From IMG/VR virus record IMGVR_UViG_2695420539_000016: 37,459 nucleotides of DNA; one strand, written 5' to 3'. The stretch comes from a virus (lineage: Duplodnaviria > Heunggongvirae > Uroviricota > Caudoviricetes). Shown here one piece after another: positions 1-36,892 of the stretch. The notes under the pieces were generated by a model. The model saw only the letters and a list, made by a program, of their open reading frames with translations. It ran no database searches and was not told where the DNA came from. Position numbers and translations under genes: made by a program. Each line of letters starts with the position of its first letter. Position 1 is the stretch's first letter.

Positions 1-405
1 ATGGATCAGGTCGTTGTTTTTCAAAAGATGTTTGAGCAAGTGAGAAAAGAGCAAAACTTCTCCTGGTTTTATTCAGAATTAAAACATCACCGTATTGCAC
101 ATTACATTTATTATCTGGCTACGGATAACATCAGAATTATTACTCACGATGACACGGTTTTGTTATTAAGAGGAACCAGGAACCTGTTAAAAGTTAGTAC
201 GACCAAGAACCCTGCTAAAATAAAAGAGGCCGCATTGCTTCATATTTGCGGAAAATCTACATTTCGGGAATACTGTTCAACACTAGCAGGCGCGGGCGTT
301 TTCCGGTGGGTTACTGATGTTAATCATAACAAACGCAGTTACTACGCCATTGATAATACGCTTTTATATATTGAAGATGTAGAAAATAATAAACCATTAA
401 TCTAG
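1..405 (+). CDS. ycgX: YcgX-like small protein (chromosomal, left-arm copy)
   Basis: 134-aa ORF immediately beyond iraM in the order icdC-iraM-ycgX-bluR that I recall for E. coli K-12; assignment rests on synteny and length, sequence not verified. Confidence 0.5.
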   Translation: MDQVVVFQKMFEQVRKEQNFSWFYSELKHHRIAHYIYYLATDNIRIITHDDTVLLLRGTRNLLKVSTTKNPAKIKEAALLHICGKSTFREYCSTLAGAGVFRWVTDVNHNKRSYYAIDNTLLYIEDVENNKPLI

Positions 406-613
406 CTAAAGTTGGATGCTTAAGAAATGCTTCATAATTCAGTAAGGCATTAGCATAATGGGAATAAAAGTACAGAGACTATCCCTATGGATGATAAATA
501 CTGTCCTTTTATTGCTACCCATAAATAATCACCATGCCAATACTATCAAATTGATATTTGAAATGTGATCACTTGACTTTCTATACGTTATTTTATAACG
601 GTTAATATATTTA

Positions 614-643
614 TAAAAACAACGGGTGTGCCATACGCCCGTT
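614..643 (-). terminator. icd-terminator-like hairpin (second, diverged copy)
   Basis: Stem AACGGG(T)G / CGCCCGTT, A-run upstream on + strand (T-run on - strand); about 55 bp resemble the icd 3' UTR/terminator. Confidence 0.3.
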
Positions 644-1100
644 TCAATACTTAACGCACATGTGTTTTGGTTTAGTCATCATCCAGTTATATGTATTTTA
701 GCCAGGAACAGGTTAAACCTTTCCTATATAACTCAAAAATTGAAACCTTATTCTCATGTCATGCTTATATTCATTATTATCGTTATATAAAAAGGCAACC
801 ATAATGTTTAGCAAATTGGCACAAAGTAGCATAAAGGCTATGTTTTAATTACAGGATGTTCAGTCATTTGAATGTATAACATTATAGCTAAACAAATCTA
901 AAACGAAGTGAATAATTTATTGTTTTCACTAAATCTCATTTTGTTTAACATCCATTGAGATTCCTTGCTTTAAATTTTGTTTTATATAAGCAATCGTTTT
1001 AATTAATTTATTTTTTGAAGGGGTAATATACTCATATGCAAAATAAAGAAATGAACATCCAAATGAACTATATTAAATACCGTGGGATAAGACATAACAA

Positions 1101-1424
1101 ATGAAGTGGATAGTAATTGACACGATAATTCAACCTTCATGCGGCATATCTTTTTCAGCCATATGGGGTAATATGAAAATGATCATCTGGTATCAATCTA
1201 CTATATTTCTCCCTCCTGGCAGTATATTTACACCGGTTAAATCTGGAATTATCCTTAAAGATAAAGAATATCCTATTACTATTTATAACATCGCACCATT
1301 CAACAAGGATTTATGGAGTCTACTCAAAAGCAGTCAAGAGTGTCCTCCAGGAGAAAGCAAAATAACAAATAAATGTTTGCATAATAGTTGCATTATAAAA
1401 ATATGCCCATATGGGCTCAAGTAA
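1101..1424 (+). CDS. iraM: Anti-adaptor protein IraM (RssB inhibitor), left-arm copy
   Basis: 107-aa [35 protein letters not shown]... matches my recollection of E. coli IraM (YcgW) nearly residue for residue; AT-rich context. Confidence 0.65.
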
Positions 1425-1471
1425 AGGGTTTTATATAAATATGCTCGATATGCTATTAATAATACCTACAT

Positions 1472-1504
1472 AAATAAAACAACGGGCGTGTTATACGCCC
1501 GTTG
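1472..1504 (-). terminator. icd rho-independent terminator (left-arm copy)
   Basis: GC-rich stem CAACGGGCG / CGCCCGTTG followed by T-run, directly after the icd-fragment stop. Confidence 0.5.
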
Positions 1505-1526
1505 CAATATTAAACACATGTAGTGA

Positions 1527-1691
1527 TTACATGTTCTTGATGATCGCATCACCAAATTCTGAACATTTCAGCAGTTTAGCGCCTTCCATCAGACGTTCGA
1601 AGTCATAGGTTACAGTCTTGGCGTTGATTGCGCCTTCCATACCTTTAACAATCAGGTCTGCGGCTTCAGTCCAGCCCATATGGCGTAACAT
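1527..1691 (-). pseudogene. icdC: icd 3' fragment (icdC), prophage attR relic, left-arm copy
   Basis: Translates [54 protein letters not shown], the C-terminus of isocitrate dehydrogenase; no upstream icd sequence, AT-rich phage-side DNA abuts it. Confidence 0.75.
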
Positions 1692-2227
1692 TAGATTTAG
1701 AAAATTATTATATCCAATTGAATTAAAACAATTTTATACTTAACGAACATCTAAACTTGTTTTTTTACCTTCACCATAACTCGCTGATTTTGTATAGTTT
1801 ACGTAGCGTTTTGATAACCACTTTATGGCAAAATGGAGGTTCGCTTGAAAACTTCTGTTCTTATCCAGAAATTAATGGAAATTGACAAAACTGTACTATT
1901 CGATGCGGACGTAGTGACCGGTGAGGAATGGTGGCCAACCCCGATTTCTCGTGTTTATCACAATCCGCCACATACTTATGTAGAATTTTAAACAGGTGAA
2001 CAATCTCAAAATGAATCTGACGAGCTAAGTGTTTATAGCGAATTACAAATTTGTGCACATCGAATGATGCAAATTAGAGATTTTGTGCAATCTAACGAGG
2101 GACTGAAACCTGAAAAAATTGTTTCGGAAATAAACATTCAAATTGAACGTATTAAAAAGTGATGGCTGAAGCAATTCTGAAACACTAATTCATATTCTAT
2201 GTTCTTCATACCAATGTGGATTTAACT

Positions 2228-2253
2228 CCCACCCACCCACCAACCCACCAACC
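2228..2253 (-). repeat. G-quadruplex-type G-tract cluster (C-rich on + strand), about 260 bp upstream of the GmrSD-like gene
   Basis: cccacccacccaccaacccaccaacc on + strand, i.e. GGG-N-GGG-N-GGG-N-GGG on - strand, isolated in AT-rich DNA. Confidence 0.35.
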
Positions 2254-2472
2254 ATGATTGGGCGGCGCAAGAAACTAATATCAATTAAAACAGCAAGTTA
2301 TCAGTCTAAACAGAACACCAACGGGATGGAGGAGAGACAAAAAATATCCAATGAAACCGTAGCGCGTCAGCATTCAAAAGCGGGGTTTCTTATTTTTACT
2401 TCACCAGTAACAAATACACTGTATCATAACTACATAAAAATGATTGTTCTGACTCAGATGAATTTCTTACTC

Positions 2473-2501
2473 TTGTGGAATGTCACTTAATGTTATTTAT
2501 A
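2473..2501 (+). promoter_or_regulatory. Candidate sigma70 promoter of the GmrSD-like gene (mirrored at 8412..8440 on - strand)
   Basis: TTGTGG, 17-bp spacer, TTTATA, then AGGT Shine-Dalgarno and ATG at 2510; read by eye. Confidence 0.25.
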
Positions 2502-2509
2502 GGTAAACA

Positions 2510-4399
2510 ATGAAATCCGAAACGCTAACCATCCAGCAAATTTTCCAAAATCAACGACAATATCGTGTTCCATTCTATCAACGTGCCTACGTATGGACGC
2601 AACGAAACCAATGGTCAGCTTTGTTGGAGGATATCTTCGAAAAAGCACAGAGCCGACTTTCGGGAACAAAACCAACCCCTCATTTCCTCGGCGCGGTGGT
2701 GCTGGAACCTCAACTCAAAAACAGCTTGTTAGGTGTAGATACCATACATATTATTGACGGCCAGCAACGTTTAACCACTCTTCAATATATTCTGGCATCC
2801 ATTCGATTATCATTGCGTGCTACAGGCCTTTCTGAACTGGAAGGGTTAGTATTGACTTGCTTGAAAAATACAAACGAAGCAACGATGAGAAATAAAAAGG
2901 TAGAATGCTTCAAACTGTGGCCAACTTTTCGAGATCAAACTCATTTTATTCAAAGTCTTAATGTTGATAATATTGACGATCTCCGTAATGTATTTTCTGA
3001 TAGCTTCACGCAACATGGTACGTTACGTAAACATTTCAACCACCCGCCGTCACTAGAGGCATTATGGTTTTTTACTGAAGCCTTTATAAAATGGATTAAA
3101 ATAGAAAACCACTCACCACAAGAAAATGCTGTAGCACTAATTGAGGCTGTCTTGACGGATCTGAAACTGGTAAGCATATTTCTCGAAGCTGAAGATGATG
3201 CCCAAATAATTTTTGAAACATTAAATGGGCGAGGAGCGGAACTTCATGCAACGGATCTTATTCGCAACTATATCTTTATGTGCGCTGAGCATGAAAATAT
3301 TAATGCTATTGAATTATATGAAAATGAGTGGAAGATCTTTGAAGATAAATACTGGTCGGAAAAGCAACGCCGTGGACGTATTAATAAACCACGCATGGAG
3401 TGGCTTGTACATGCGACATTGCAATCAGAAAGGCAGCGTGAAATTGATCTGTCTCGCCTTTACAATGAGTATCGTGATTATGTAAGTAAGGACTTGCCTT
3501 CACAACGAGCAGATCTGCAAGTAAAGCGCCTCAAACAATATGCATCACAATATAAAGAATTGGTTGGTGGTTTTGGCACAACCCCCATCTCACACTTTGG
3601 ACATCGCATCGCAGCCTATGATGTGACGACACTCTATCCGCTTGCTTTGTTCATTTCGATAGCTAACATCGCCGATGATGAGAAAGCAGCCATGTATAAT
3701 GATCTTGTCTCCTACGTAGTACGAAGATCCGTATGTGGCCTGACGCCAAAGAATTACAACAATGTATTTATGAATGTATTGCGACACTTGTCTAAAACGG
3801 AAATTTCCAGTGTTGAGTTACGTAATATCCTCAATAGCTTAAATGGCGAAGCCTCACGTTGGCCTGGGGACTCAGAATTTCTCAACGCTTGCATCAATGC
3901 TCCACTTTATCCTGGCAGGCTCGACGCACCGAAAATGCGCTCAATGTTAACGGAACTTGAAAGAGAACTTTGTCGCCAAGTGAAGACAGAAAAGCCTGAT
4001 GTTCCAAATCTTTCTAATCTCGATATCGATCATCTTATGCCTCAAAGTTGGTATTCCTGTTGGCCTCTCGAAAATGGTCATATGGTGACAAATTCAGATG
4101 CTACGGTAATGAACCAAATTGTTCTGTCTGGAACCGATCTTACCCCTGAACAGCTACTGGTAAGGAAACGGCAACAAGCGATAGCTACGTTGGGAAATCT
4201 AACTTTGCTTAACCTTAGCGTAAACCGTTCCGTTCAGAATGCTGTATTTCTGAAAAAACGTGATGCTCTCATCGTCCACACCAATCTACGACTGAACATA
4301 CCACTTATACTTAAGGATAAATGGGATGAGAGTGAAATACAGGAGCGAGGTAAAAAGTTGGGGGAAATTGCATTGAAAGTATGGCCAAAATACGATTAA
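2510..4399 (+). CDS. DUF262/DUF1524 protein, GmrSD/BrxU-type candidate type IV (modification-dependent) restriction endonuclease, left-arm copy
   Basis: 629 aa; N-terminal ParB-like DUF262 motifs YRVPFYQRAYVW and IIDGQQRLTTL; C-terminal DUF1524/HNH-like motifs DIDHLMPQ and GNLTLLNLSVNRSVQN. Confidence 0.8.
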   Translation: MKSETLTIQQIFQNQRQYRVPFYQRAYVWTQRNQWSALLEDIFEKAQSRLSGTKPTPHFLGAVVLEPQLKNSLLGVDTIHIIDGQQRLTTLQYILASIRLSLRATGLSELEGLVLTCLKNTNEATMRNKKVECFKLWPTFRDQTHFIQSLNVDNIDDLRNVFSDSFTQHGTLRKHFNHPPSLEALWFFTEAFIKWIKIENHSPQENAVALIEAVLTDLKLVSIFLEAEDDAQIIFETLNGRGAELHATDLIRNYIFMCAEHENINAIELYENEWKIFEDKYWSEKQRRGRINKPRMEWLVHATLQSERQREIDLSRLYNEYRDYVSKDLPSQRADLQVKRLKQYASQYKELVGGFGTTPISHFGHRIAAYDVTTLYPLALFISIANIADDEKAAMYNDLVSYVVRRSVCGLTPKNYNNVFMNVLRHLSKTEISSVELRNILNSLNGEASRWPGDSEFLNACINAPLYPGRLDAPKMRSMLTELERELCRQVKTEKPDVPNLSNLDIDHLMPQSWYSCWPLENGHMVTNSDATVMNQIVLSGTDLTPEQLLVRKRQQAIATLGNLTLLNLSVNRSVQNAVFLKKRDALIVHTNLRLNIPLILKDKWDESEIQERGKKLGEIALKVWPKYD

Positions 4400-4421
4400 T
4401 GCAATTAATAAAATGATTATA

Positions 4422-4445
4422 GCGGCCTTACATTAGTAAGGCCGC
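4422..4445. terminator. Hairpin between convergent pin stub and GmrSD-like gene (possible bidirectional terminator)
   Basis: Mirror of 6468..6491: 9-bp stem GCGGCCTTA / TAAGGCCGC, 6-nt loop. Confidence 0.35.
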
Positions 4446-4624
4446 AACTCACTATTAAATCCTTTAATTTGCATCAAGAACAGCACTGTCAGCCCTAGGC
4501 TCTCGGACTTTGTACCGCTTATCTTGTCTTCAAAAATCAGCTCGCATCCTGCACAGTTCAACGCATTACGTTGTAGATCGATTTTCTGGTCATTTGTTGA
4601 TACGCAAACATAGCCAATAAGCAT
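4433..4624 (-). pseudogene. Truncated Hin/Gin/Pin-family serine invertase (pin 5' stub, about 45 native codons)
   Basis: MLIGYVCVSTNDQKIDLQRNALNCAGCELIFEDKISGT... matches Pin/Gin N-terminus, then diverges into 18 unrelated codons and stops; conserved Arg before the catalytic Ser is Cys. Confidence 0.75.
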
Positions 4625-4650
4625 GGTAGCTCCCTCTGACAAAAGCAGGA

Positions 4651-5058
4651 ATGATGCCATTTTCTCGTTATTTCTGCATTTTCATAAACGTTGGTTTGGG
4701 AGAAGCGGCAAAACGGAATGTAGGTAACGGGCAAAACCAAATTCCGGATATGGCGGCGTTTGCCAGTTCACTTTCATCAACGGGTTTTCAAAAACTCCCT
4801 TCAGGTCTGATTATTCAGTGGGGTATTGTCAGTGGAGCATCAAACTATACGGTGACTTACCCGGTAACATTCCCAAATCGTTCACTTGCGCTGTTGGCTG
4901 TGCCACATACAACGTCGTTGGCTGGTATATCTGCAATGGGCATTGCGAACTGTTCTGATATCACCAAATCACAGTTCTATATAATTGTTGGCGGTATATC
5001 TCAGGGAGAAATTGTCAAATATGAAAGGTCCTGTTTTTGGGTAGCAATCGGTGTATAG
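4651..5058 (+). CDS. Tail-fibre variable C-terminal exon A, here orphaned (first codons come from the flank, not from a fibre constant region)
   Basis: Residues after GLGE are identical to the C-terminal part of the 218-aa fibre at 34814..35470; the leader MMPFSRYFCIFINV is antisense of the pin stub region. Confidence 0.5.
   Translation: MMPFSRYFCIFINVGLGEAAKRNVGNGQNQIPDMAAFASSLSSTGFQKLPSGLIIQWGIVSGASNYTVTYPVTFPNRSLALLAVPHTTSLAGISAMGIANCSDITKSQFYIIVGGISQGEIVKYERSCFWVAIGV
4679..4704. other. Hybrid crossover site: outer half-site is the inverted outer half of ixR, inner half-site is that of ixL
   Basis: TTTTCATAAACG-TT-GGTTTGGGAGAA; compare normal ixL at 35091..35116 (CTCTTCAAAACC-TT-GGTTTGGGAGAA) and ixR at 6209..6234. 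Confidence 0.55.
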
Positions 5059-5066
5059 GTATATCT

Positions 5067-5462
5067 ATGATTTATTTCTCAAAATCGACTAATGGTTTTT
5101 TCTTTGATGGTATAAACAGCGACATGCCTGCTGACATTGTTGAGATAAGTACAGACTTATACAATGAATTAATTGCCGGACAGCAGGAAGGGGGTAAATT
5201 AATCACGTCAGATGAAAATGGTTTACCGGTACTGAAATCTCCGGCGATTGATTATGTCGCACGTGCTGAAAATCAGCGAATGCAGTTACTTGCTCATGCC
5301 GATAATGTCACAGCTGACTGGCGAGTGGAATTAATGCTTGGTGATATCAGCAGTACAGATAAAGAAAAACTATCCGCCTGGATGGACTACAAAAAAGAAG
5401 TAAAAGCCGTCGACACTTCGACGGCTCCTGAGATTAGCTGGCCTGAGTTACCGGAGGTGTAG
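5067..5462 (+). CDS. Tail fibre assembly protein (Tfa), partner of exon A
   Basis: C-terminal motif VDTSTAPEISWPELPEV typical of lambda Tfa / Mu U family; weak RBS before ATG at 5067. Confidence 0.75.
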   Translation: MIYFSKSTNGFFFDGINSDMPADIVEISTDLYNELIAGQQEGGKLITSDENGLPVLKSPAIDYVARAENQRMQLLAHADNVTADWRVELMLGDISSTDKEKLSAWMDYKKEVKAVDTSTAPEISWPELPEV

Positions 5463-5871
5463 GCCATTCAATATCTGGAGCACTGGAGGTATCCACCAGT
5501 TCCAGTGCGTCCAGGTAATCCAGCCACAAATTATATAGTGCCAGTTCCTCGTCTTTCAGACGACCAATAGCGGCTTTACCGGGCCATTGTTTACTGTTCA
5601 TGTATTCGTTGGCCTGATTAAGCAATAATTGCCTTTCTGATTCTGCCTGTTGAATAAGTTCTTCATGCGATGGTGGAGGTATTAGTGCCCATGTGGGTAA
5701 TCCATTTTTTCCTGCAACACGAATTTTGTCATATGGGGGCGTATTGATTGCAAATTCATTATAAACATCATCACTGACAGCCAGAGCATCATCTGGCCAT
5801 GAATTTGCATTAATGTAATCATCCTTAAGCGCAGGATTCACAAAAATGTTTAATGATGGACTATAAAACAT
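5434..5871 (-). CDS. Tail fibre assembly protein (Tfa'), partner of exon B
   Basis: 145 aa ending ...LVDTSSAPDIEWPTPPVTQAS; convergent with the other tfa and overlapping its 3' end. Confidence 0.75.
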   Translation of the reverse strand: MFYSPSLNIFVNPALKDDYINANSWPDDALAVSDDVYNEFAINTPPYDKIRVAGKNGLPTWALIPPPSHEELIQQAESERQLLLNQANEYMNSKQWPGKAAIGRLKDEELALYNLWLDYLDALELVDTSSAPDIEWPTPPVTQAS

Positions 5872-5872
5872 A

Positions 5873-6262
5873 TTAACCCCCTATAGCGATATAACGACCT
5901 AATACAGCATTTGCAGCAGTCGCTATGCTTGAAAAACCGCGGAACTGATTTGATGTAATTGCAGAAGCCGACAGGATTCCTGCGCCTGAAGGTGTATGCC
6001 CCACATGACTAACTATCATTCCATAACATGCTGACGGAAAGGCAAAAGGAAAATCATTAAGATATCCGGCATCTTCACCACCAGACCCACCAAATCTCGC
6101 CTGCCCCCACTGAATAATCAGTGTTCTCCGGGAACCTGAAATAATTAACGGAATCGTTACATACCCATTCAGACCAATGACACCCGATGCAGTGCCAGCC
6201 AGAGATAATTCTCCCAAACCAACGTTTATGAAAATGCAGAAATAACGAGAAAATGGCATCAT
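5873..6262 (-). CDS. Tail-fibre variable C-terminal exon B (alternative receptor-binding domain) with the same 18-codon flank-derived leader
   Basis: Shares MMPFSRYFCIFINVGLGE with the exon A ORF, then a different Gly/Ser-rich C-terminal domain. Confidence 0.5.
   Translation of the reverse strand: MMPFSRYFCIFINVGLGELSLAGTASGVIGLNGYVTIPLIISGSRRTLIIQWGQARFGGSGGEDAGYLNDFPFAFPSACYGMIVSHVGHTPSGAGILSASAITSNQFRGFSSIATAANAVLGRYIAIGG
6209..6234. other. Crossover site ixR of the invertible segment, copy 1
   Basis: TTCTCCCAAACC-AA-CGTTTATGAAAA; inner half is the exact inverted repeat of the ixL inner half. Confidence 0.55.
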
Positions 6263-6288
6263 TCCTGCTTTTGTCAGAGGGAGCTACC

Positions 6289-6480
6289 ATGCTTATTGGC
6301 TATGTTTGCGTATCAACAAATGACCAGAAAATCGATCTACAACGTAATGCGTTGAACTGTGCAGGATGCGAGCTGATTTTTGAAGACAAGATAAGCGGTA
6401 CAAAGTCCGAGAGCCTAGGGCTGACAGTGCTGTTCTTGATGCAAATTAAAGGATTTAATAGTGAGTTGCGGCCTTACTAA
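6289..6480 (+). pseudogene. Truncated pin-type invertase stub (right-arm copy)
   Basis: Same as 4433..4624; GGGAG RBS then ATG; stop codon lies in the loop of the downstream hairpin. Confidence 0.75.
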
Positions 6481-6491
6481 TGTAAGGCCGC
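6468..6491. terminator. Hairpin between pin stub and GmrSD-like gene
   Basis: GCGGCCTTA-CTAATG-TAAGGCCGC, followed by TATAATCATTTTATT. Confidence 0.35.
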
Positions 6492-6513
6492 TATAATCAT
6501 TTTATTAATTGCA

Positions 6514-8403
6514 TTAATCGTATTTTGGCCATACTTTCAATGCAATTTCCCCCAACTTTTTACCTCGCTCCTGTATTTCACTCTCATCCCATTTATCCTT
6601 AAGTATAAGTGGTATGTTCAGTCGTAGATTGGTGTGGACGATGAGAGCATCACGTTTTTTCAGAAATACAGCATTCTGAACGGAACGGTTTACGCTAAGG
6701 TTAAGCAAAGTTAGATTTCCCAACGTAGCTATCGCTTGTTGCCGTTTCCTTACCAGTAGCTGTTCAGGGGTAAGATCGGTTCCAGACAGAACAATTTGGT
6801 TCATTACCGTAGCATCTGAATTTGTCACCATATGACCATTTTCGAGAGGCCAACAGGAATACCAACTTTGAGGCATAAGATGATCGATATCGAGATTAGA
6901 AAGATTTGGAACATCAGGCTTTTCTGTCTTCACTTGGCGACAAAGTTCTCTTTCAAGTTCCGTTAACATTGAGCGCATTTTCGGTGCGTCGAGCCTGCCA
7001 GGATAAAGTGGAGCATTGATGCAAGCGTTGAGAAATTCTGAGTCCCCAGGCCAACGTGAGGCTTCGCCATTTAAGCTATTGAGGATATTACGTAACTCAA
7101 CACTGGAAATTTCCGTTTTAGACAAGTGTCGCAATACATTCATAAATACATTGTTGTAATTCTTTGGCGTCAGGCCACATACGGATCTTCGTACTACGTA
7201 GGAGACAAGATCATTATACATGGCTGCTTTCTCATCATCGGCGATGTTAGCTATCGAAATGAACAAAGCAAGCGGATAGAGTGTCGTCACATCATAGGCT
7301 GCGATGCGATGTCCAAAGTGTGAGATGGGGGTTGTGCCAAAACCACCAACCAATTCTTTATATTGTGATGCATATTGTTTGAGGCGCTTTACTTGCAGAT
7401 CTGCTCGTTGTGAAGGCAAGTCCTTACTTACATAATCACGATACTCATTGTAAAGGCGAGACAGATCAATTTCACGCTGCCTTTCTGATTGCAATGTCGC
7501 ATGTACAAGCCACTCCATGCGTGGTTTATTAATACGTCCACGGCGTTGCTTTTCCGACCAGTATTTATCTTCAAAGATCTTCCACTCATTTTCATATAAT
7601 TCAATAGCATTAATATTTTCATGCTCAGCGCACATAAAGATATAGTTGCGAATAAGATCCGTTGCATGAAGTTCCGCTCCTCGCCCATTTAATGTTTCAA
7701 AAATTATTTGGGCATCATCTTCAGCTTCGAGAAATATGCTTACCAGTTTCAGATCCGTCAAGACAGCCTCAATTAGTGCTACAGCATTTTCTTGTGGTGA
7801 GTGGTTTTCTATTTTAATCCATTTTATAAAGGCTTCAGTAAAAAACCATAATGCCTCTAGTGACGGCGGGTGGTTGAAATGTTTACGTAACGTACCATGT
7901 TGCGTGAAGCTATCAGAAAATACATTACGGAGATCGTCAATATTATCAACATTAAGACTTTGAATAAAATGAGTTTGATCTCGAAAAGTTGGCCACAGTT
8001 TGAAGCATTCTACCTTTTTATTTCTCATCGTTGCTTCGTTTGTATTTTTCAAGCAAGTCAATACTAACCCTTCCAGTTCAGAAAGGCCTGTAGCACGCAA
8101 TGATAATCGAATGGATGCCAGAATATATTGAAGAGTGGTTAAACGTTGCTGGCCGTCAATAATATGTATGGTATCTACACCTAACAAGCTGTTTTTGAGT
8201 TGAGGTTCCAGCACCACCGCGCCGAGGAAATGAGGGGTTGGTTTTGTTCCCGAAAGTCGGCTCTGTGCTTTTTCGAAGATATCCTCCAACAAAGCTGACC
8301 ATTGGTTTCGTTGCGTCCATACGTAGGCACGTTGATAGAATGGAACACGATATTGTCGTTGATTTTGGAAAATTTGCTGGATGGTTAGCGTTTCGGATTT
8401 CAT
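6514..8403 (-). CDS. DUF262/DUF1524 GmrSD/BrxU-type candidate type IV restriction endonuclease (right-arm copy)
   Basis: Identical 629-aa translation to 2510..4399. Confidence 0.8.
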   Translation of the reverse strand: MKSETLTIQQIFQNQRQYRVPFYQRAYVWTQRNQWSALLEDIFEKAQSRLSGTKPTPHFLGAVVLEPQLKNSLLGVDTIHIIDGQQRLTTLQYILASIRLSLRATGLSELEGLVLTCLKNTNEATMRNKKVECFKLWPTFRDQTHFIQSLNVDNIDDLRNVFSDSFTQHGTLRKHFNHPPSLEALWFFTEAFIKWIKIENHSPQENAVALIEAVLTDLKLVSIFLEAEDDAQIIFETLNGRGAELHATDLIRNYIFMCAEHENINAIELYENEWKIFEDKYWSEKQRRGRINKPRMEWLVHATLQSERQREIDLSRLYNEYRDYVSKDLPSQRADLQVKRLKQYASQYKELVGGFGTTPISHFGHRIAAYDVTTLYPLALFISIANIADDEKAAMYNDLVSYVVRRSVCGLTPKNYNNVFMNVLRHLSKTEISSVELRNILNSLNGEASRWPGDSEFLNACINAPLYPGRLDAPKMRSMLTELERELCRQVKTEKPDVPNLSNLDIDHLMPQSWYSCWPLENGHMVTNSDATVMNQIVLSGTDLTPEQLLVRKRQQAIATLGNLTLLNLSVNRSVQNAVFLKKRDALIVHTNLRLNIPLILKDKWDESEIQERGKKLGEIALKVWPKYD

Positions 8404-8659
8404 TGTTTACCTATAAATAACATTAAGTGACATTCCACAAGAGTAAGAAATTCATCTGAGTCAGAACAATCATTTTTATGTAGTTATGATACAGTGTATT
8501 TGTTACTGGTGAAGTAAAAATAAGAAACCCCGCTTTTGAATGCTGACGCGCTACGGTTTCATTGGATATTTTTTGTCTCTCCTCCATCCCGTTGGTGTTC
8601 TGTTTAGACTGATAACTTGCTGTTTTAATTGATATTAGTTTCTTGCGCCGCCCAATCAT

Positions 8660-8685
8660 GGTTGGTGGGTTGGTGGGTGGGTGGG
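8660..8685 (+). repeat. G-quadruplex-type motif upstream of the GmrSD-like gene
   Basis: ggttggtgggttggtgggtgggtggg. Confidence 0.35.
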
Positions 8686-9221
8686 AGTTAAATCCACATT
8701 GGTATGAAGAACATAGAATATGAATTAGTGTTTCAGAATTGCTTCAGCCATCACTTTTTAATACGTTCAATTTGAATGTTTATTTCCGAAACAATTTTTT
8801 CAGGTTTCAGTCCCTCGTTAGATTGCACAAAATCTCTAATTTGCATCATTCGATGTGCACAAATTTGTAATTCGCTATAAACACTTAGCTCGTCAGATTC
8901 ATTTTGAGATTGTTCACCTGTTTAAAATTCTACATAAGTATGTGGCGGATTGTGATAAACACGAGAAATCGGGGTTGGCCACCATTCCTCACCGGTCACT
9001 ACGTCCGCATCGAATAGTACAGTTTTGTCAATTTCCATTAATTTCTGGATAAGAACAGAAGTTTTCAAGCGAACCTCCATTTTGCCATAAAGTGGTTATC
9101 AAAACGCTACGTAAACTATACAAAATCAGCGAGTTATGGTGAAGGTAAAAAAACAAGTTTAGATGTTCGTTAAGTATAAAATTGTTTTAATTCAATTGGA
9201 TATAATAATTTTCTAAATCTA

Positions 9222-9386
9222 ATGTTACGCCATATGGGCTGGACTGAAGCCGCAGACCTGATTGTTAAAGGTATGGAAGGCGCAATCAACGCCAAGACTG
9301 TAACCTATGACTTCGAACGTCTGATGGAAGGCGCTAAACTGCTGAAATGTTCAGAATTTGGTGATGCGATCATCAAGAACATGTAA
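9222..9386 (+). pseudogene. icdC: icd 3' fragment (icdC), prophage right attachment relic
   Basis: 54 codons encoding the Icd C-terminus; homology starts abruptly at 9222 after AT-rich phage-side DNA. Confidence 0.75.
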
Positions 9387-9408
9387 TCACTACATGTGTT
9401 TAATATTG

Positions 9409-9441
9409 CAACGGGCGTATAACACGCCCGTTGTTTTATTT
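9409..9441 (+). terminator. icd rho-independent terminator
   Basis: CAACGGGCG-TATAACA-CGCCCGTTG followed by TTTTATTT. Confidence 0.55.
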
Positions 9442-9488
9442 ATGTAGGTATTATTAATAGCATATCGAGCATATTTATATAAAACCCT

Positions 9489-9812
9489 TTACTTGAGCCC
9501 ATATGGGCATATTTTTATAATGCAACTATTATGCAAACATTTATTTGTTATTTTGCTTTCTCCTGGAGGACACTCTTGACTGCTTTTGAGTAGACTCCAT
9601 AAATCCTTGTTGAATGGTGCGATGTTATAAATAGTAATAGGATATTCTTTATCTTTAAGGATAATTCCAGATTTAACCGGTGTAAATATACTGCCAGGAG
9701 GGAGAAATATAGTAGATTGATACCAGATGATCATTTTCATATTACCCCATATGGCTGAAAAAGATATGCCGCATGAAGGTTGAATTATCGTGTCAATTAC
9801 TATCCACTTCAT
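9489..9812 (-). CDS. iraM: Anti-adaptor protein IraM (right-arm copy)
   Basis: Identical translation to 1101..1424. Confidence 0.65.
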
Positions 9813-10269
9813 TTGTTATGTCTTATCCCACGGTATTTAATATAGTTCATTTGGATGTTCATTTCTTTATTTTGCATATGAGTATATTACCCCTTCAAAA
9901 AATAAATTAATTAAAACGATTGCTTATATAAAACAAAATTTAAAGCAAGGAATCTCAATGGATGTTAAACAAAATGAGATTTAGTGAAAACAATAAATTA
10001 TTCACTTCGTTTTAGATTTGTTTAGCTATAATGTTATACATTCAAATGACTGAACATCCTGTAATTAAAACATAGCCTTTATGCTACTTTGTGCCAATTT
10101 GCTAAACATTATGGTTGCCTTTTTATATAACGATAATAATGAATATAAGCATGACATGAGAATAAGGTTTCAATTTTTGAGTTATATAGGAAAGGTTTAA
10201 CCTGTTCCTGGCTAAAATACATATAACTGGATGATGACTAAACCAAAACACATGTGCGTTAAGTATTGA

Positions 10270-10299
10270 AACGGGCGTATGGCACACCCGTTGTTTTTA
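10270..10299 (+). terminator. Second icd-terminator-like hairpin (diverged duplicate)
   Basis: AACGGGCG-TATGGCA-CACCCGTT then TGTTTTTAT; upstream bases also resemble the icd 3' UTR. Confidence 0.3.
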
Positions 10300-10507
10300 T
10301 AAATATATTAACCGTTATAAAATAACGTATAGAAAGTCAAGTGATCACATTTCAAATATCAATTTGATAGTATTGGCATGGTGATTATTTATGGGTAGCA
10401 ATAAAAGGACAGTATTTATCATCCATAGGGATAGTCTCTGTACTTTTATTCCCATTATGCTAATGCCTTACTGAATTATGAAGCATTTCTTAAGCATCCA
10501 ACTTTAG

Positions 10508-10912
10508 CTAGATTAATGGTTTATTATTTTCTACATCTTCAATATATAAAAGCGTATTATCAATGGCGTAGTAACTGCGTTTGTTATGATTAACATCAGT
10601 AACCCACCGGAAAACGCCCGCGCCTGCTAGTGTTGAACAGTATTCCCGAAATGTAGATTTTCCGCAAATATGAAGCAATGCGGCCTCTTTTATTTTAGCA
10701 GGGTTCTTGGTCGTACTAACTTTTAACAGGTTCCTGGTTCCTCTTAATAACAAAACCGTGTCATCGTGAGTAATAATTCTGATGTTATCCGTAGCCAGAT
10801 AATAAATGTAATGTGCAATACGGTGATGTTTTAATTCTGAATAAAACCAGGAGAAGTTTTGCTCTTTTCTCACTTGCTCAAACATCTTTTGAAAAACAAC
10901 GACCTGATCCAT
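10508..10912 (-). CDS. ycgX: YcgX-like small protein (right-arm copy)
   Basis: Identical translation to 1..405; GAGG RBS lies at 10913+ so the gene context continues naturally past the visible palindrome edge. Confidence 0.5.
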   Translation of the reverse strand: MDQVVVFQKMFEQVRKEQNFSWFYSELKHHRIAHYIYYLATDNIRIITHDDTVLLLRGTRNLLKVSTTKNPAKIKEAALLHICGKSTFREYCSTLAGAGVFRWVTDVNHNKRSYYAIDNTLLYIEDVENNKPLI

Positions 10913-13055: not shown

Positions 13056-13162
13056 GCGATTTTCGCCGAAGATAACGACATAATACTTGTATTTCTCAAA
13101 AAATATGGATAAGATTTTCTCAACGATGGGGCTTGTGTATCTATCGTTGAACAATTTTTACG

Positions 13163-13188
13163 ACCTCGCTATTGCGAGGTTTTTTTAT
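13163..13188 (+). terminator. Rho-independent terminator downstream of Q (tR'-like)
   Basis: ACCTCGC-TATT-GCGAGGT followed by TTTTTT. Confidence 0.55.
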
Positions 13189-13198
13189 GGTTTTTTTC

Positions 13199-13232
13199 TA
13201 TTCAATCTACATCAAAATCAATGTGTTATAAT
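13199..13232 (+). promoter_or_regulatory. Candidate promoter of moron 1 with extended -10
   Basis: TGtTATAAT at 13224..13232 with T-rich upstream region; AGGAGA RBS before ATG 13270. Confidence 0.3.
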
Positions 13233-13269
13233 GTTTTCTGTAAAACAACATTAAAAACAGGAGAACATT

Positions 13270-13539
13270 ATGAAACTGACCTCTATCCATCTTGAAATAC
13301 TACGTCGAGTGAATGAATTGCAGCCAAAGGATTCTAGAATTCAGGCTGCATCATTACCTCATCTCTCAGCAAAAGAGGTTAACTTTGCTATTTCAGATCT
13401 TGCTGATATAGGTTTTATCGATGTTATACGAAGCAAATCTGCCGAAGGTGGATTGATTGCTAATGAGATAACGTCAAAAGGTTTTGCTTTTTTGAGTGAG
13501 ATTGGCGCTGAAAAAAATTCATCGATGAGCACTCATTGA
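13270..13539 (+). CDS. Small winged-helix-like protein (moron 1, gene 1)
   Basis: 89 aa with strong AGGAGA RBS; helix-turn-wing pattern LEILRRV...EVNFAISDLADIGFIDV; AT-rich. Confidence 0.5.
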   Translation: MKLTSIHLEILRRVNELQPKDSRIQAASLPHLSAKEVNFAISDLADIGFIDVIRSKSAEGGLIANEITSKGFAFLSEIGAEKNSSMSTH

Positions 13540-13553
13540 TTTCTGCTTCAATC

Positions 13554-13571
13554 GGCTGCCAATTGGCAGCC
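13554..13571. other. Perfect 18-bp palindrome GGCTGCCAATTGGCAGCC (possible operator or attenuator hairpin)
   Basis: Exact dyad 15 bp after the stop of the 89-aa gene; no T-tract follows. Confidence 0.3.
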
Positions 13572-13736
13572 TAAACTGTAAAGTGAATTTAAAATCGCCT
13601 ACAATTGATGCTTAAATTTTGTTCTGTATCATCTGCAGGTTTAGGGATATCACAGTAGCTTTCTGACAAGAAGAGTTCTTTTCTTCTACCAATGAAGTGG
13701 TTATGTTAACCTGCGCTAAATCGAGACTGGTGCGGA

Positions 13737-14543
13737 GTGGAATCGAAAGTGTCATATTTTTACAGAAGCAAGAATATTTCAGGTGTTTCTATAAATGAAG
13801 ATAGCTTGATTAGCTTAAGCACGGCAATTGTCGAACGCTGCGTTAAAATGAATGAGCAAGCTCAAAAGGAAAGTAGGGAAGTTTGTGCTCAATGTGTTTT
13901 TTTTATTTTGTTCGATGGTAAGGGGTATAAAGTTGATTCTATCGGTGAGCTTGTGAAATACTTTAGACAGGCCACTAGGATTGATCAAATAATTTTTACT
14001 ATTGAAACTTATCAAAGTCGACAGTCTAACAGGATGAATGGATCTTGGATGGAGCTACGAATTGATGAGAGGAATTCAAATAGCAGCACAATGATTGTAG
14101 CATCGGAAGATAATGAGTGGGTTGACTCGTTATGGATTACGATTCAGGATTTACTTAACAAGTGCAAAAATAAATTTAGATTTTTTAGAACAGCTTGGAC
14201 TATGTTAAGTATCCAGATTTCAGGTGTGACAGTTGGCTTTTTGCTTAGCTTATGGACAGCCTCAAAACTGGCGCCAAAACTATCAATCGATGGTGCATTT
14301 GCTTTATCATTTATTTGTATCTTTATTTTGTTTTCGAACTTATGGAGCTTTGCTATTCCATTAATAATTAAGCTTATCGACTTTTTGTTTCCTAGTGTTA
14401 AGTTTGTTATTAATGGTAAAAATTACTTTCACTGGAGTGTCCAGGCTATAATTGGAGCGATTGCCAGTGCGGTTATATTGTATTTTATTAGCTCCATGTT
14501 GCTTTTTGCATTAGAAATGTTAAATAGCATCATTAAGAAATAG
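13737..14543 (+). CDS. Membrane protein with soluble N-terminal domain and about four C-terminal transmembrane helices (moron 1, gene 2)
   Basis: 268-aa ORF (GTG start in the track; first ATG at 13848); hydrophobic C-terminal stretches; visibly AT-rich against neighbouring phage genes. Confidence 0.5.
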   Translation: MESKVSYFYRSKNISGVSINEDSLISLSTAIVERCVKMNEQAQKESREVCAQCVFFILFDGKGYKVDSIGELVKYFRQATRIDQIIFTIETYQSRQSNRMNGSWMELRIDERNSNSSTMIVASEDNEWVDSLWITIQDLLNKCKNKFRFFRTAWTMLSIQISGVTVGFLLSLWTASKLAPKLSIDGAFALSFICIFILFSNLWSFAIPLIIKLIDFLFPSVKFVINGKNYFHWSVQAIIGAIASAVILYFISSMLLFALEMLNSIIKK

Positions 14544-15306: not shown

Positions 15307-15920
15307 TGAACCAATCACAATTTCAGCAGGCGGCTGGTATCAGCGCCGATGTTTCTGCACGCTGGTTTCCGCACATTGATGCGGCAATGAAAGAGTTTGG
15401 TATTACAGCAGTTAATGATCAGGCCATGTTCATTGCACAAGTCGGGCATGAGTCTGCAGGATTTACTTCGCTGGCAGAGAGTTTTAACTACTCGGTTGAA
15501 GGGCTGAAGAAAACCTTTGGTAAGCGTCTGACGCCGTACCAGTGCGAAATGCTGGGGCGTGTCGATGGTAAACAGGTCGCTCACCAGCCGCAAATAGCCA
15601 ATCTGGTTTACGGTGACCGCATGGGGAATAACAGCCAGGGTGACGGCTGGAAATATCGCGGTCGTGGCCTGCTTCAAATTACTGGCCGTGAGAACTACAC
15701 CAAATGTGGTGCGGCGCTGAAACTTGACCTTGTCAATACACCAGAATTGCTAACGCAGGAGCGACATGCGGCCCGTTCGGCGGCGTGGTACTTCACGTTA
15801 CGCGGTTGCTTGATGTATTCGGGTGACGTGGAACGTGTAACGCAGATTATTAACGGCGGACAGAATGGCATTAAAGACCGCCGTGAACGTTACGCCAAAG
15901 CAAAAGCCGCACTGGTATGA
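15306..15920 (+). CDS. Endolysin, glycoside hydrolase family 19 (chitinase-class lysozyme)
   Basis: Motifs QVGHESAGFT and YRGRGLLQITGRENY; GAGG RBS. Confidence 0.8.
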   Translation: MNQSQFQQAAGISADVSARWFPHIDAAMKEFGITAVNDQAMFIAQVGHESAGFTSLAESFNYSVEGLKKTFGKRLTPYQCEMLGRVDGKQVAHQPQIANLVYGDRMGNNSQGDGWKYRGRGLLQITGRENYTKCGAALKLDLVNTPELLTQERHAARSAAWYFTLRGCLMYSGDVERVTQIINGGQNGIKDRRERYAKAKAALV

Positions 15921-15927
15921 GGTCACT

Positions 15928-16197
15928 ATGGGACTTGAAATGATTATCGGCCTGGTTGTTGCTGTGCTGGCTGCAATTGCAGGTGCTTTTGGTCTGGGTA
16001 AATCACGCGGTACAAGTATCGCAGAAACAAAAGCGGACCAGCAACGCACTGAAGAACGTGCAGCTGCTACTGAAGCCGTTGCAGAACGTAGGGTAGAGAC
16101 AACAAAAGGAGCCTGGGATGTACAGCAGACTGTTAATCATCTACCTGATGACGATGTTGACCGTGAGTTGCGCGAAAACTTTACCCGCAAAACCTGA
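15928..16197 (+). CDS. Rz-like i-spanin
   Basis: N-terminal TM helix MIIGLVVAVLAAIAGAF then charged periplasmic region; ATG 15928 with GAGG RBS. Confidence 0.6.
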   Translation: MGLEMIIGLVVAVLAAIAGAFGLGKSRGTSIAETKADQQRTEERAAATEAVAERRVETTKGAWDVQQTVNHLPDDDVDRELRENFTRKT

Positions 16198-16336
16198 AGT
16201 AACGGACACGGCCTGTGACTGGGTAAGAATCATCTACCTCACAGGTCAGGACATTGAAGTGCTGGATAAGCTTACGAAGCGGGATATTCTGGCACATAAC
16301 AAAGCAGTACAGCGCAACTGTATTAGCCAGTTATGA
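16118..16336 (+). CDS. Rz1-like o-spanin lipoprotein, overlapping the 3' end of Rz in another frame
   Basis: Signal sequence ending LTVSC (lipobox-like); AAAGGAG RBS. Confidence 0.5.
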   Translation: MYSRLLIIYLMTMLTVSCAKTLPAKPEVTDTACDWVRIIYLTGQDIEVLDKLTKRDILAHNKAVQRNCISQL

Positions 16337-16347
16337 GGCAAACGAGA

Positions 16348-16370
16348 TTGCGGGCAATTATCGCCCGCAA
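16348..16370. terminator. Hairpin between convergent Rz1 and the antisense moron gene
   Basis: TTGCGGGC-AATTATC-GCCCGCAA. Confidence 0.35.
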
Positions 16371-16378
16371 TAAAGTTA

Positions 16379-16795
16379 TCAATTATCTCCTTTAAAGGAG
16401 TCGTATTCACCCCAATCAGCAAACCCAATCGGTCTTTTAGGGGTCTCTAAGCATAAGCGTTTTTTTCGGATTAGCAGGACATTTATTTGAGATACATGCT
16501 GAACAAGTTCTACAGGACTGCCATCCTCCAGAGTACCAATGAAAGAAATTAATGATGGATTCCAGTAGCTTATGTCTGTGAAATGAAATTCAATGTTTTT
16601 ACCAAAGCTAGCTAGTTGTCCTCCTACCTCATACTCTTCTTCAAGTTCACGGTGAAAATCATTTATCCAGCATATAAGGCGTCTATGAAATTCATTTGCA
16701 AGATTGTAGTCCTTTGGAACATATGGCTGTGAGTATTTGAGGAAATCATTCATGTAGTTATTTGTCATCAGGGCGTCCTTTACGAGCATAACCAT
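16379..16795 (-). CDS. Hypothetical 138-aa protein, antisense to the late operon (moron 2)
   Basis: Only substantial minus-strand ORF lying in an intergenic gap of the late region; AT-richer than its neighbours. Confidence 0.45.
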   Translation of the reverse strand: MVMLVKDALMTNNYMNDFLKYSQPYVPKDYNLANEFHRRLICWINDFHRELEEEYEVGGQLASFGKNIEFHFTDISYWNPSLISFIGTLEDGSPVELVQHVSQINVLLIRKKRLCLETPKRPIGFADWGEYDSFKGDN

Positions 16796-16866
16796 TGTTA
16801 CTTAACGGATTGAAACGCTATTAAATAACATGGTTTCTATCATAATTTCTATCCGGAGTTTTCCAT

Positions 16867-17217
16867 ATGCCGCCACGAATCCCAAAAGCCTGCCGTGTTC
16901 GCGGCTGCCGTTCTACCACTACAGATCCGTCAGGCTACTGCGAAAATCATAAAGGTGAGGGCTGGAAATCCTACAAGCCAGGTCAATCACGGCAGCAGCG
17001 CGGATATGGAACAAAGTGGGAAGTCATCCGGGAGCGGATACTAAAGCGCGACAAAGGGTTATGTCAGAACCATCTTCGGCAGGGAGTTGTGAAGCAAGCG
17101 TCCTGCGTGGACCACCTCAAGGCGAAGGCTCACGGCGGCACTGATGAAGACAGCAACCTTGAGAGTCTGTGCTGGTCGTGTCACGCAGTGAAGACCGCGC
17201 GTGAGCGGTTCAGGTGA
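16867..17217 (+). CDS. HNH endonuclease (terminase-associated)
   Basis: CxxC...HNH...CxxCH pattern: CRVRGC, CQNH, VDHLKAKAHGG, CWSCH. Confidence 0.8.
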   Translation: MPPRIPKACRVRGCRSTTTDPSGYCENHKGEGWKSYKPGQSRQQRGYGTKWEVIRERILKRDKGLCQNHLRQGVVKQASCVDHLKAKAHGGTDEDSNLESLCWSCHAVKTARERFR

Positions 17218-17343
17218 GAATTGATGTCATCATCAGCCAGGGGAGGGGGAGGTCGAATCTTTGCAACCGCGCGCCTTCCGGACTGCCCGCCCCATCGTTT
17301 TTTTATACCCGCGAAAAATGAAATTTAACCAGGAGTGCCGCAT

Positions 17344-17838
17344 ATGGCTGGAACGGCGGGGCGTTCCGGGCGTCGCCCCAAGCCAACGGCGCGCAAGGCG
17401 CTGGCCGGAAACCCCGGCAAGCGAGCCCTGAATAAAGATGAACCTGTTTTTACGCCCATCAAAGGTGTTGAGCCACCGGAGTGGTTCGCTGAAGAAGATC
17501 TCCCTCTCGCCACGATCATGTGGCAACTGACAACTAAAGAACTCTGCGGTCAGGGCCTGCTGTGCGTGACTGACCTCGCAGTGCTTGAGCGGTGGTGTGT
17601 GGCCTATGAGTTCTGGCGACGTGCCGTGAAAAATATTGCCAGACAGGGCAACACCATCACCGGTGCAATGGGCGGTATGGTCAAAAATCCGGAGCTGACC
17701 GCCAAAAAAGAACAGGAGTCCGAGATGAGCAGTACGGGGGCAATGCTCGGACTCGACCCCAGCAGCCGCCAGCGTCTGATTGGCCTGGCGGGGAAGAAGA
17801 AAGCCACTAACCCGTTTCTGAAAATCATCGAATCATGA
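17344..17838 (+). CDS. Terminase small subunit (P27-family type)
   Basis: ATG 17344 with AGGAG RBS; basic N-terminus; ATGA overlap with large terminase. Confidence 0.7.
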
Positions 17839-34813: not shown

Positions 34814-35470
34814 ATGCATCGTATAGACACGAAAACCGCGCAGAAGGATAAGTTCGGCGCGGGTAAGAACGGTTTTACCCGTGGTAACCCCCAGACCGGC
34901 ACGCCTGCCACCGATCTGGATGATGACTACTTTGACATGTTGCAGGAAGAGCTCTGCAGCGTGGTGGAGGCATCCGGTGCCAGCCTGGAGAAGGGGCGGC
35001 ATGACCAGCTGCTTACCGCGCTTCGTGCGCTGCTGTTAAGTCGCAAAAATCCGTTTGGCGATATCAAATCGGACGGCACGGTGAAAACGGCTCTTCAAAA
35101 CCTTGGTTTGGGAGAAGCGGCAAAACGGAATGTAGGTAACGGGCAAAACCAAATTCCGGATATGGCGGCGTTTGCCAGTTCACTTTCATCAACGGGTTTT
35201 CAAAAACTCCCTTCAGGTCTGATTATTCAGTGGGGTATTGTCAGTGGAGCATCAAACTATACGGTGACTTACCCGGTAACATTCCCAAATCGTTCACTTG
35301 CGCTGTTGGCTGTGCCACATACAACGTCGTTGGCTGGTATATCTGCAATGGGCATTGCGAACTGTTCTGATATCACCAAATCACAGTTCTATATAATTGT
35401 TGGCGGTATATCTCAGGGAGAAATTGTCAAATATGAAAGGTCCTGTTTTTGGGTAGCAATCGGTGTATAG
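34814..35470 (+). CDS. Tail fibre protein: constant N-terminal part fused across ixL to variable C-terminal exon A
   Basis: 218 aa; N-terminus [29 protein letters not shown] typical of P2 H / Mu S / e14 Stf fibres; crossover site lies at codons 93-101. Confidence 0.8.
35091..35116. other. Crossover site ixL (Hin/Gin/Pin-type, native context)
   Basis: CTCTTCAAAACC-TT-GGTTTGGGAGAA; left half matches 10 of 12 to hixL TTCTTGAAAACC as I recall it. Confidence 0.6.
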
Positions 35471-35478
35471 GTATATCT

Positions 35479-36283: not shown

Positions 36284-36284
36284 A

Positions 36285-36632: not shown

Positions 36633-36646
36633 AACGTTTATGAAAA
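36621..36646. other. Crossover site ixR, copy 2
   Basis: Same as 6209..6234. Confidence 0.55.
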
Positions 36647-36700
36647 TGCAGAAATAACGAGAAAATGGCATCATTCCTGCTTTTGTCAGAGGGAGCTACC

Positions 36701-36892
36701 ATGCTTATTGGCTATGTTTGCGTATCAACAAATGACCAGAAAATCGATCTACAACGTAATGCGTTGAACTGTGCAGGATGCGAGCTGATTTTTGAAGACA
36801 AGATAAGCGGTACAAAGTCCGAGAGCCTAGGGCTGACAGTGCTGTTCTTGATGCAAATTAAAGGATTTAATAGTGAGTTGCGGCCTTACTAA
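36701..36892 (+). pseudogene. Truncated pin-type invertase stub (third copy)
   Basis: Identical to 6289..6480. Confidence 0.75.

Follow-up and report, generated by a model that had tools for sequence, protein, structure and literature searches.

The locus

The window considered here is the whole stretch of 37,459 nucleotides (nt) held as IMG/VR record IMGVR_UViG_2695420539_000016, and the phage DNA in it is the late half of a prophage of the e14-like kind, integrated at icd in Escherichia coli. Our subject is a small gene of the DUF6173 family, which lies on the minus strand between the lysis genes and the terminase genes of that prophage. To its left stands a complete lysis cassette, comprising holins (Phage_holin_8 and 3_7), a GH19 endolysin, a 110-amino-acid (aa) i-spanin-like protein and an Rz1-like o-spanin lipoprotein. 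The open reading frame (ORF) of the o-spanin, at 16118..16336 on the plus strand, is a RefSeq coding sequence (CDS) with the lipobox LTVSC in its translation; it is nested in the i-spanin-like ORF at 15865-16197 and forms the left border. The right border is an HNH endonuclease gene at 16867..17217, followed by the P27-family small terminase (TerS, 17335-17838) and then the large terminase (TerL), all on the plus strand and identified by domain search and RefSeq CDS, the terminase module through a Terminase_4 match. A first-pass annotation, made from the sequence letters, had placed an antisense single-gene moron between these two modules at 16348-16866. The domain matches for holins, endolysin, spanins, HNH and Terminase_4 bear out the surroundings, and the gene does lie inside that span, although the span is the whole inter-operon gap and the gene itself is shorter. 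The gene was also rightly called the sole antisense gene of the late operon: from Q (12261) to the tail-fibre genes (~35.9 kb), all other RefSeq CDSs are on the plus strand.

The ORF list of the window gives the antisense frame as 16379-16795 on the minus strand, 138 aa, as previously described. The identical DNA in E. coli chromosomes is annotated in RefSeq as a CDS of 390 nt encoding 129 aa (WP_000184049.1, 'DUF6173 family protein'). The start of this shorter version is the ATG at 16768-16766, which is preceded by AAGGA at 16780-16776 with a spacer of 7 nt, while the ATG at 16795 has no Shine-Dalgarno-like motif ahead of it. The closest non-identical homologue (P0002, 82% identical) begins at the residue equivalent to the ATG at 16768. 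Because the Shine-Dalgarno motif, the homologue start and the RefSeq CDS agree, we take the gene as 16379..16768 (minus strand), and by these sequence features the start at 16768 (129 aa) appears likelier than that at 16795 (138 aa). The stop codon occupies 16381-16379 and faces the o-spanin stop codon at 16334-16336. The 5' region of the gene (16769..16866, minus strand), which holds the Shine-Dalgarno motif and a candidate promoter, is at the same time the divergent gap to the HNH gene. The best sigma-70-like candidate in it consists of ATGGAA (16866-16861), a 16-nt spacer and TATGAT (16844-16839), a weak match with 8 of 12 consensus positions.

Between the convergent stop codons lies a GC-rich hairpin (16347..16371), with a stem of 9-11 bp formed by 16347-16355 and 16363-16371. 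Its folding energy is -18.1 kcal/mol on the plus strand and -19.2 kcal/mol on the minus strand (z about -3), and only one or two of 200 shuffled sequences fold equally well, so the convergent hairpin noticed earlier between the Rz1-like gene and the antisense gene is confirmed. It could be a bidirectional terminator or an RNA-stabilising stem; an Rfam search of 15500-17600 returned no match.

Equally well founded was the remark that the gene is AT-richer than its surroundings. Its GC content is 38.4%, against 49.5% in the 3.3-kb flanks and 54.1% in the late operon, and the gene is thus compositionally foreign in this prophage. The same holds for the family, whose members are AT-richer than their flanks at 92 of 115 loci (mean difference -5.6 GC points, p 5e-15).

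The DUF6173 family and its conservation

The protein had been described as having no recognisable motifs, which does not hold. It matches Pfam DUF6173 (PF19670) with 75.8 bits against a gathering cut-off of 27 (E 3.8e-21), residues 40-125 aligning to profile positions 16-101 of 102, and it also matches phrog_3306 (PHROG 3306). These profile matches make the protein a full member of DUF6173; neither DUF6173 nor PHROG 3306 carries an assigned function, and DUF6173 has no structure assigned to it either. Profile and structure searches had both been proposed as checks; the profiles place the protein in its family, whereas the structure search gave no significant match. A search of NCBIfam with the window protein returned no match.

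The family is large and widespread. A word-indexed search found 281 close relatives at 56-85% identity, from Klebsiella, Citrobacter, Serratia, Yersinia, Pantoea, Pseudomonas, Pseudoalteromonas, Aeromonas, betaproteobacteria and marine metagenomes. In an exhaustive profile search the family comprised 1459 clusters (at 50% identity) at E <= 1e-3 and 977 at E <= 1e-10. When species-representative genomes were scanned, members turned up in at least 10 phyla, including Acidobacteriota, Bacillota, Cyanobacteria, Planctomycetota, Bacteroidota, Spirochaetota, Chlorobiota and Desulfobacterota, with an identity of 43-60% in the core. Our alignment of the family (A1) has 35 invariant columns, all of them kept in the window protein, and the invariant columns include the motifs WINDFH, YWNPSLISF, QHVSQI and PKRPIGF. 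Between the window gene and its enterobacterial homologues, nonsynonymous divergence (dN) is 0.13-0.2 and synonymous divergence (dS) is saturated. On this evidence the ORF is a real gene, and one under strong purifying selection.

A variable slot among E. coli prophages

Of 5426 complete E. coli genomes, about 1170 contain homologues of the window's HNH/TerS/TerL module, and the similarity of those prophages to the window begins at the HNH start codon (~16857-16867). The DUF6173 gene occurs in about 64 E. coli genomes, all but two of them at >=99% identity. In other prophages the slot between spanin and HNH is filled differently: with an antisense iss/bor lipoprotein gene in strain 120, with a Rha regulator and two hypothetical genes in B27, and with a 252-aa hypothetical gene in c1-17. 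By this comparison of E. coli prophages, the variable cargo slot extends from the end of the lysis cassette to the HNH start (16337..16866).

Many E. coli carriers hold the DUF6173 gene inside a heavily degraded prophage remnant, and only 10 genomes match >=80% of a 1.8-kb query that reaches into TerS. In the remnant of APEC O78 (L001, 16000-22300), Q, a methylase and HNH are truncated and the structural genes are gone; the lysis genes, DUF6173 and a DUF262 restriction enzyme are intact, and a 601-bp segment across DUF6173 is 100% identical to the window.

Recurrent capture by temperate phages

The placement seen in the window recurs in phages with other head and lysis genes. Klebsiella lambdoid prophages with a different head module have the order Rz, DUF6173 (antisense), TerS, TerL. 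The same prophages (L003-L007, 3046-3390) have a further antisense moron in the head-gene block, encoding a 114-aa protein of the Rap1a family, an immunity family against amidase effectors of the type VI secretion system (T6SS). In Yersinia enterocolitica an identical DUF6173 protein is encoded antisense directly upstream of TerS in four mosaic prophages that differ in their lysis, Q and head modules. Across IMG/VR viral contigs, the divergent small terminase upstream of DUF6173 belongs to at least four families (phrog_51, phrog_1206, phrog_57 and Terminase_4). DUF6173 is opposed to both flanking genes at 17 of 28 viral loci (61%), compared with 31 of 236 other ORFs (13%; Fisher p 9e-8), where the viral loci are distinct loci with both neighbours present and the controls are the other ORFs called in the same loci.

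The gene also runs in the direction of the lysogeny genes. In the icd prophage, DUF6173 is on the same strand as int, xis and a LexA-like repressor gene. In the Clostridioides difficile phage phiCDKH02 it is co-oriented with XRE, ImmA and integrase genes and antisense within the early lytic operon, and in P2-like phages of Pseudoalteromonas the gene comes last, at the end of the prophage, where it converges with the integrase. The Klebsiella, Yersinia and IMG/VR gene orders show that unrelated temperate phages captured DUF6173 repeatedly, in antisense orientation, at the junction between lysis and terminase genes.

Contexts outside phages and the absence of a partner gene

DUF6173 genes are also found on 11 plasmids (including small Rep plasmids of Acinetobacter baumannii), in an island bounded by two integrases and in arrays with toxin-antitoxin cassettes. 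In Oxalicibacterium solurbis (L171, 4525-9424) the layout is integron-like, a row of small genes of one direction standing behind a divergent tyrosine integrase, with DUF6173 first and then DUF4262, a 79-aa ORF, DMP19 (a DNA-mimic family) and others. Pseudomonas oryzihabitans has the gene beside a resolvase and a Pycsar system. In Methylophaga (L084, 3952-5910) a co-directional 652-aa OLD/AriA/GajA-like ATPase-TOPRIM gene lies 90 nt upstream. In other marine genomes (L008/L009/L013, 5257-5895) a Tn3-family transposase has reduced the OLD-like gene to a 212-aa TOPRIM remnant, 97% identical. An apparent pair of the 212-aa TOPRIM gene and DUF6173 was accordingly rejected as a real association, being one lineage in which the 652-aa OLD-like gene was truncated by Tn3.

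No partner recurs across these contexts. The nearest neighbours at about 110 distinct loci fall into 107 Pfam families upstream and 86 downstream, with no conserved partner among them; the commonest are Terminase_2 (6) and Rz (4), and clustering the neighbours by BLAST revealed no shared partner gene. The DUF6173 gene thus travels alone, without a conserved companion.

Protein properties and predicted structure

All 30 members examined are acidic, with isoelectric points of 4.7-6.2 and net charges of -2 to -11, and none has a hydrophobic membrane-type segment (maximum KD19 0.74). The AlphaFold2 model has a mean pLDDT of 83, with >90 in the core. In it, about 30 disordered N-terminal residues precede a helix (32-50), five strands (55-63, 66-78, 82-88, 94-100 and 106-112) and an ordered C-terminal tail with PKRPIGF followed by a short helix. 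The core of about 100 residues is accordingly predicted to be a helix plus a five-stranded SH3/Sm-like barrel, and the protein as a whole is small, acidic and cytoplasmic, its N-terminus being variable and disordered. A profile search of all Protein Data Bank (PDB) sequences returned noise alone (best E 1.7). PilZ-type motifs (RxxxR and [DN]xSxxG), checked by eye, are not present in alignment A1.

The domain also occurs in longer proteins. A subgroup of 334-464 aa (P0143, P0149 and P0157) has an N-terminal XRE-type helix-turn-helix (HTH_3), a long repeat-rich linker and a C-terminal DUF6173 domain, and in many other members the N-terminus is extended by repetitive or disordered sequence, in some of them at length. 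In regulators and antitoxins, the C-terminal position behind an HTH is taken by domains for sensing, oligomerisation or partner binding.

Interpretation and rival explanations

A moron in the sense of Hendrix and Juhala is an extra gene between genes that are adjacent, or separated by something else, in related phages. The DUF6173 gene is such an extra gene in a slot differently filled in relatives, and its base composition is unlike that of the surrounding phage genes. Of a promoter and terminator of its own, a further mark of morons, the window shows the weak 8/12 candidate and the stable hairpin. Together with the recurrent antisense placement and the shared orientation with integrase and repressor, the variable slot behind a shared HNH/TerS/TerL module and the foreign composition uphold the first-pass annotation's reading as a single-gene moron. 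We regard it as very probable that the gene is an autonomous cargo gene in the spanin-HNH/terminase slot of an e14-like E. coli prophage at icd.

What the cargo does can be proposed with less assurance. Since the gene shares its direction with integrase and repressor and opposes the lytic operons, it is most likely transcribed in the lysogen, and by this analogy of layout we consider lysogen transcription probable. Its own weak promoter would drive it, as in lambda bor/iss and JBD26 tab. The protein would act by stoichiometric binding and not by catalysis or damage to the membrane. This is the most likely mode because neither an enzyme signature nor a membrane segment nor a partner gene is seen in the family, which also forms the C-terminal domain of XRE-HTH proteins; that the protein is a binder rather than an enzyme is, in our estimate, somewhat favoured. 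The binding target would be a conserved ligand or protein, contacted through the YWNPS and QHVSQ loops, and the very high conservation across phyla suggests that this target is invariant. The benefit to the lysogen would most plausibly lie in conflict with other phages or mobile elements, but a role in phage exclusion or defence is itself a tentative proposal, which we hold to be rather less probable than its opposite. The explanation as a whole we judge to be evenly poised between right and wrong.

A bolder version can be formulated, in which DUF6173 would be an oligomeric SH3/Sm-like barrel and a hitherto unrecognised and very widespread single-protein module of inter-element conflict. Its two invariant motif regions would form a pocket for sequestering a ligand that is conserved everywhere, which might be an immune signal of nucleotide type or else a conserved segment of a phage or host protein. 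It would be a self-sufficient cassette, always antisense and thereby lysogen-made in prophages and carried also by integrons, plasmids and islands in >10 bacterial phyla. In this full form the idea is speculative and probably wrong in some part.

Several observations weigh against the favoured explanation. An identity of 43-85% across phyla, with Proteobacteria, Firmicutes and Cyanobacteria among those compared, is atypical of arms-race proteins. The PADLOC v2.0.0 models gave 0 families at E <= 10 with the window protein, and we found no literature on DUF6173, PF19670, phrog_3306 or WP_000184049. The promoter scan upstream of the gene found none at the 9/12 threshold, and upstream promoter scores across the family (114 loci) equal those of shuffled sequences (8.25 versus 8.10, p 0.22). 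The hairpin has no U-tract, for which reason the intrinsic terminator scan passes over it and makes no call at 16347-16371. In non-viral genomes DUF6173 is not preferentially antisense (23% versus 18%), and its expression logic there is simply that of a cassette. Sm-fold proteins bind their ligands at the beta2-beta3 turn and the beta4-beta5 loop region. In the predicted model, YWNPS sits at the beta2-beta3 turn and QHVSQ runs from the end of beta4 into the beta4-beta5 loop; the suggestion that these motifs occupy ligand-binding positions comes from that model alone. Foldseek searches against PDB and BFVD gave nothing at E <= 0.001, the structural matches being weak and generic.

Among the rivals, an anti-defence or establishment factor survives best, although we consider it unlikely. 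The protein, as an acidic decoy or sponge (it might mimic DNA, soak up a nucleotide signal or counter restriction), would shield the incoming or induced element, and not the lysogen, from host immunity. The uniformly acidic and small family would suit this role, as would its carriage by phages, plasmids, integron-like arrays and islands; an invariant ligand would agree with the conservation across phyla, the Sm-like loop motifs of the model could furnish a nucleotide pocket, and Pycsar, type I restriction-modification and OLD-like genes are occasional neighbours. The orientation argues otherwise, since in phages the gene opposes the lytic operons and runs with the lysogeny genes, which is the wrong timing for a counter-defence that must act early in infection. 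Moreover, no match to solved sponge or anti-restriction structures was obtained, and the gene is retained where the prophage is a degraded remnant that cannot be induced.

An orphan immunity or antitoxin-like protein is less probable again. Here the protein would tightly bind a basic toxin (such as a bacteriocin, an effector used between bacteria, or the toxin of a toxin-antitoxin or abortive-infection system), so that the lysogen is protected in competition. An acidic, small and partner-less protein of sporadic distribution is compatible with this, and the HTH-DUF6173 fusions resemble antitoxin architecture. Three neighbourhoods point the same way: an A. baumannii plasmid with TPR, SMI1/KNR4 and DUF6173 genes in one co-directional row (a single anecdote), the Klebsiella prophage with both DUF6173 and the antisense Rap1a moron (likewise anecdotal), and the integron-like array in which DUF4262 and DMP19 adjoin DUF6173. 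Against these stand the absence of a recurrent toxin neighbour (at 31 Firmicutes loci the 124 neighbours matched 147 Pfam families, with no LXG, WXG or Imm among the 25 commonest listed) and the fact that immunity proteins usually diverge fast whereas DUF6173 is so conserved across phyla. Polymorphic-toxin immunity arrays, suggested in Bacillales by gene sizes, were rejected, there being no LXG, WXG, Rhs or Imm among the 25 commonest neighbour families.

We think it improbable that the protein is an Sm/Hfq/WYL-like nucleic-acid-binding regulator, that is, an RNA chaperone or a sensor of single-stranded DNA or RNA that reprogrammes host or prophage expression. The predicted helix plus five-strand topology, the modelled position of the invariant motifs and the resemblance of the XRE HTH fusion to HTH-WYL regulators would agree with it, but the negative charge of all 30 members is unfavourable for general nucleic-acid binding and hhalign gives a probability of 1.2% against E. 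coli Hfq. Finally, a phage life-cycle gene for packaging or lysis (a terminase/HNH or lysis-timing regulator) is very improbable, for although the immediate neighbours of DUF6173 include spanins and four families of TerS, the gene runs against the HNH/terminase operon, is missing from >1100 E. coli prophages with the same HNH/TerS/TerL module, and is present in plasmids, integron-like arrays and chromosomal sites of at least 10 phyla.

The gene and its family are already entered in Pfam and RefSeq, and prophage morons in the bor/iss slot are likewise a known kind of feature. New, as far as we could find, are the recurrent antisense, lysogeny-facing capture at the lysis-terminase junction, the lack of a partner, the spread across phyla and the predicted small-barrel fold. 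At present the gene is an ordinary moron of unknown function that has already been publicly annotated. However, the large family, the unusual conservation, the absence of a partner and the repeated lysogen-facing capture make it a good and cheap candidate for phenotype screens, and a positive phenotype would annotate thousands of genes at once.

Other features of the window

A second AT-rich cargo slot (~35% GC) lies at 13087-14543, between the antiterminator gene Q and the holin. It holds two plus-strand ORFs, one of 89 aa with a weak, sub-threshold DUF2513 match and one of 268 aa whose C-terminal half is hydrophobic and which has no Pfam or PADLOC match. A related prophage has Kiwa KwaA/KwaB on the opposite strand in the equivalent slot. 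At the right end of the prophage, adjoining the icd' attR remnant, a 629-aa DUF262 protein is encoded at 6514-8403 (minus strand), with a copy at 2510-4399 (plus strand). It matches PADLOC mREase_IV over its full length (1524 bits), a type IV methyl-directed restriction enzyme, and a known defence gene is carried by the same prophage as DUF6173.

The order of the window departs from that of complete E. coli genomes. Its positions 1-4704 recur, without a mismatch and in reverse complement, at 6209-10912, the stretch 35094-37459 duplicates 4681-7047 with a period of 30.4 kb, and at ~11398 host DNA from inside bluR is fused directly to the middle of the prophage DUF968 gene. An invertible tail-fibre segment, present at 4705-6208 and 35118-36620, contains a convergent pair of tail-fibre-assembly genes together with an alternative fibre tip of gp53-like type; the Pin-like recombinase gene adjoining it is a truncated pseudogene in complete genomes. 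The layout resembles an assembly artefact, circularised or folded back on itself, or else the product of an aberrant excision, with the invertible segment at its centre.

Comparison with known systems

The closest parallel in position is lambda bor and its E. coli counterpart iss, which Barondess and Beckwith are said to have described as a prophage-expressed lipoprotein moron conferring serum resistance. Bor/iss and DUF6173 share the slot directly after the spanin genes and the antisense orientation, and in the strain 120 prophage, with its homologous HNH/TerS/TerL module, iss takes the place of DUF6173. The proteins themselves differ: there is no homology, DUF6173 was the only Pfam family returned for the window protein, and its translation has no lipobox and no strongly hydrophobic stretch by KD19. 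The lysis-terminase junction of lambdoid prophages is the cargo slot from which bor/iss came, and Tab-type defences came from the terminase region nearby.

Small beta-barrel (SH3/Sm-like) proteins, namely Sm/LSm, Hfq, the Pelota N-domain and the WYL domains of CapW, BrxR and DriD, are among the closest systems with respect to the predicted fold. Membership of Hfq/Sm, prompted by a resemblance between QHVSQ and YKHAIS, was rejected on the low hhalign probability for alignment A1 and the empty profile search of PDB sequences, and R67 DHFR, an SH3-like integron enzyme among the Foldseek hits, was rejected likewise (hhalign probability 0.06%).

In architecture the gene resembles tab, the tail assembly blocker gene of Pseudomonas aeruginosa phage JBD26, which encodes 83 aa on the minus strand between the terminase genes and, driven by a promoter of its own, is expressed by the prophage as a constitutive defence (PMC10884400). 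Both encode a small protein on the minus strand in the late operon, adjoining terminase genes. Tab, however, always has a late-operon anti-Tab gene with it and is found in one phage group only; DUF6173 lacks a conserved companion and occurs across many phyla and element types. As a homologue Tab was rejected (hhalign probability 0.09%), and it is retained as an architectural analogue.

The link to OLD systems belongs to a single lineage; in Methylophaga the DUF6173 gene follows the OLD-like ATPase-TOPRIM gene. For P2-like phages, Rousset et al. in 2022 reportedly described cargo hotspots (old, tin, fun), and in the P2-like Pseudoalteromonas prophages DUF6173 stands beside the integrase at the prophage end, a classic cargo position.

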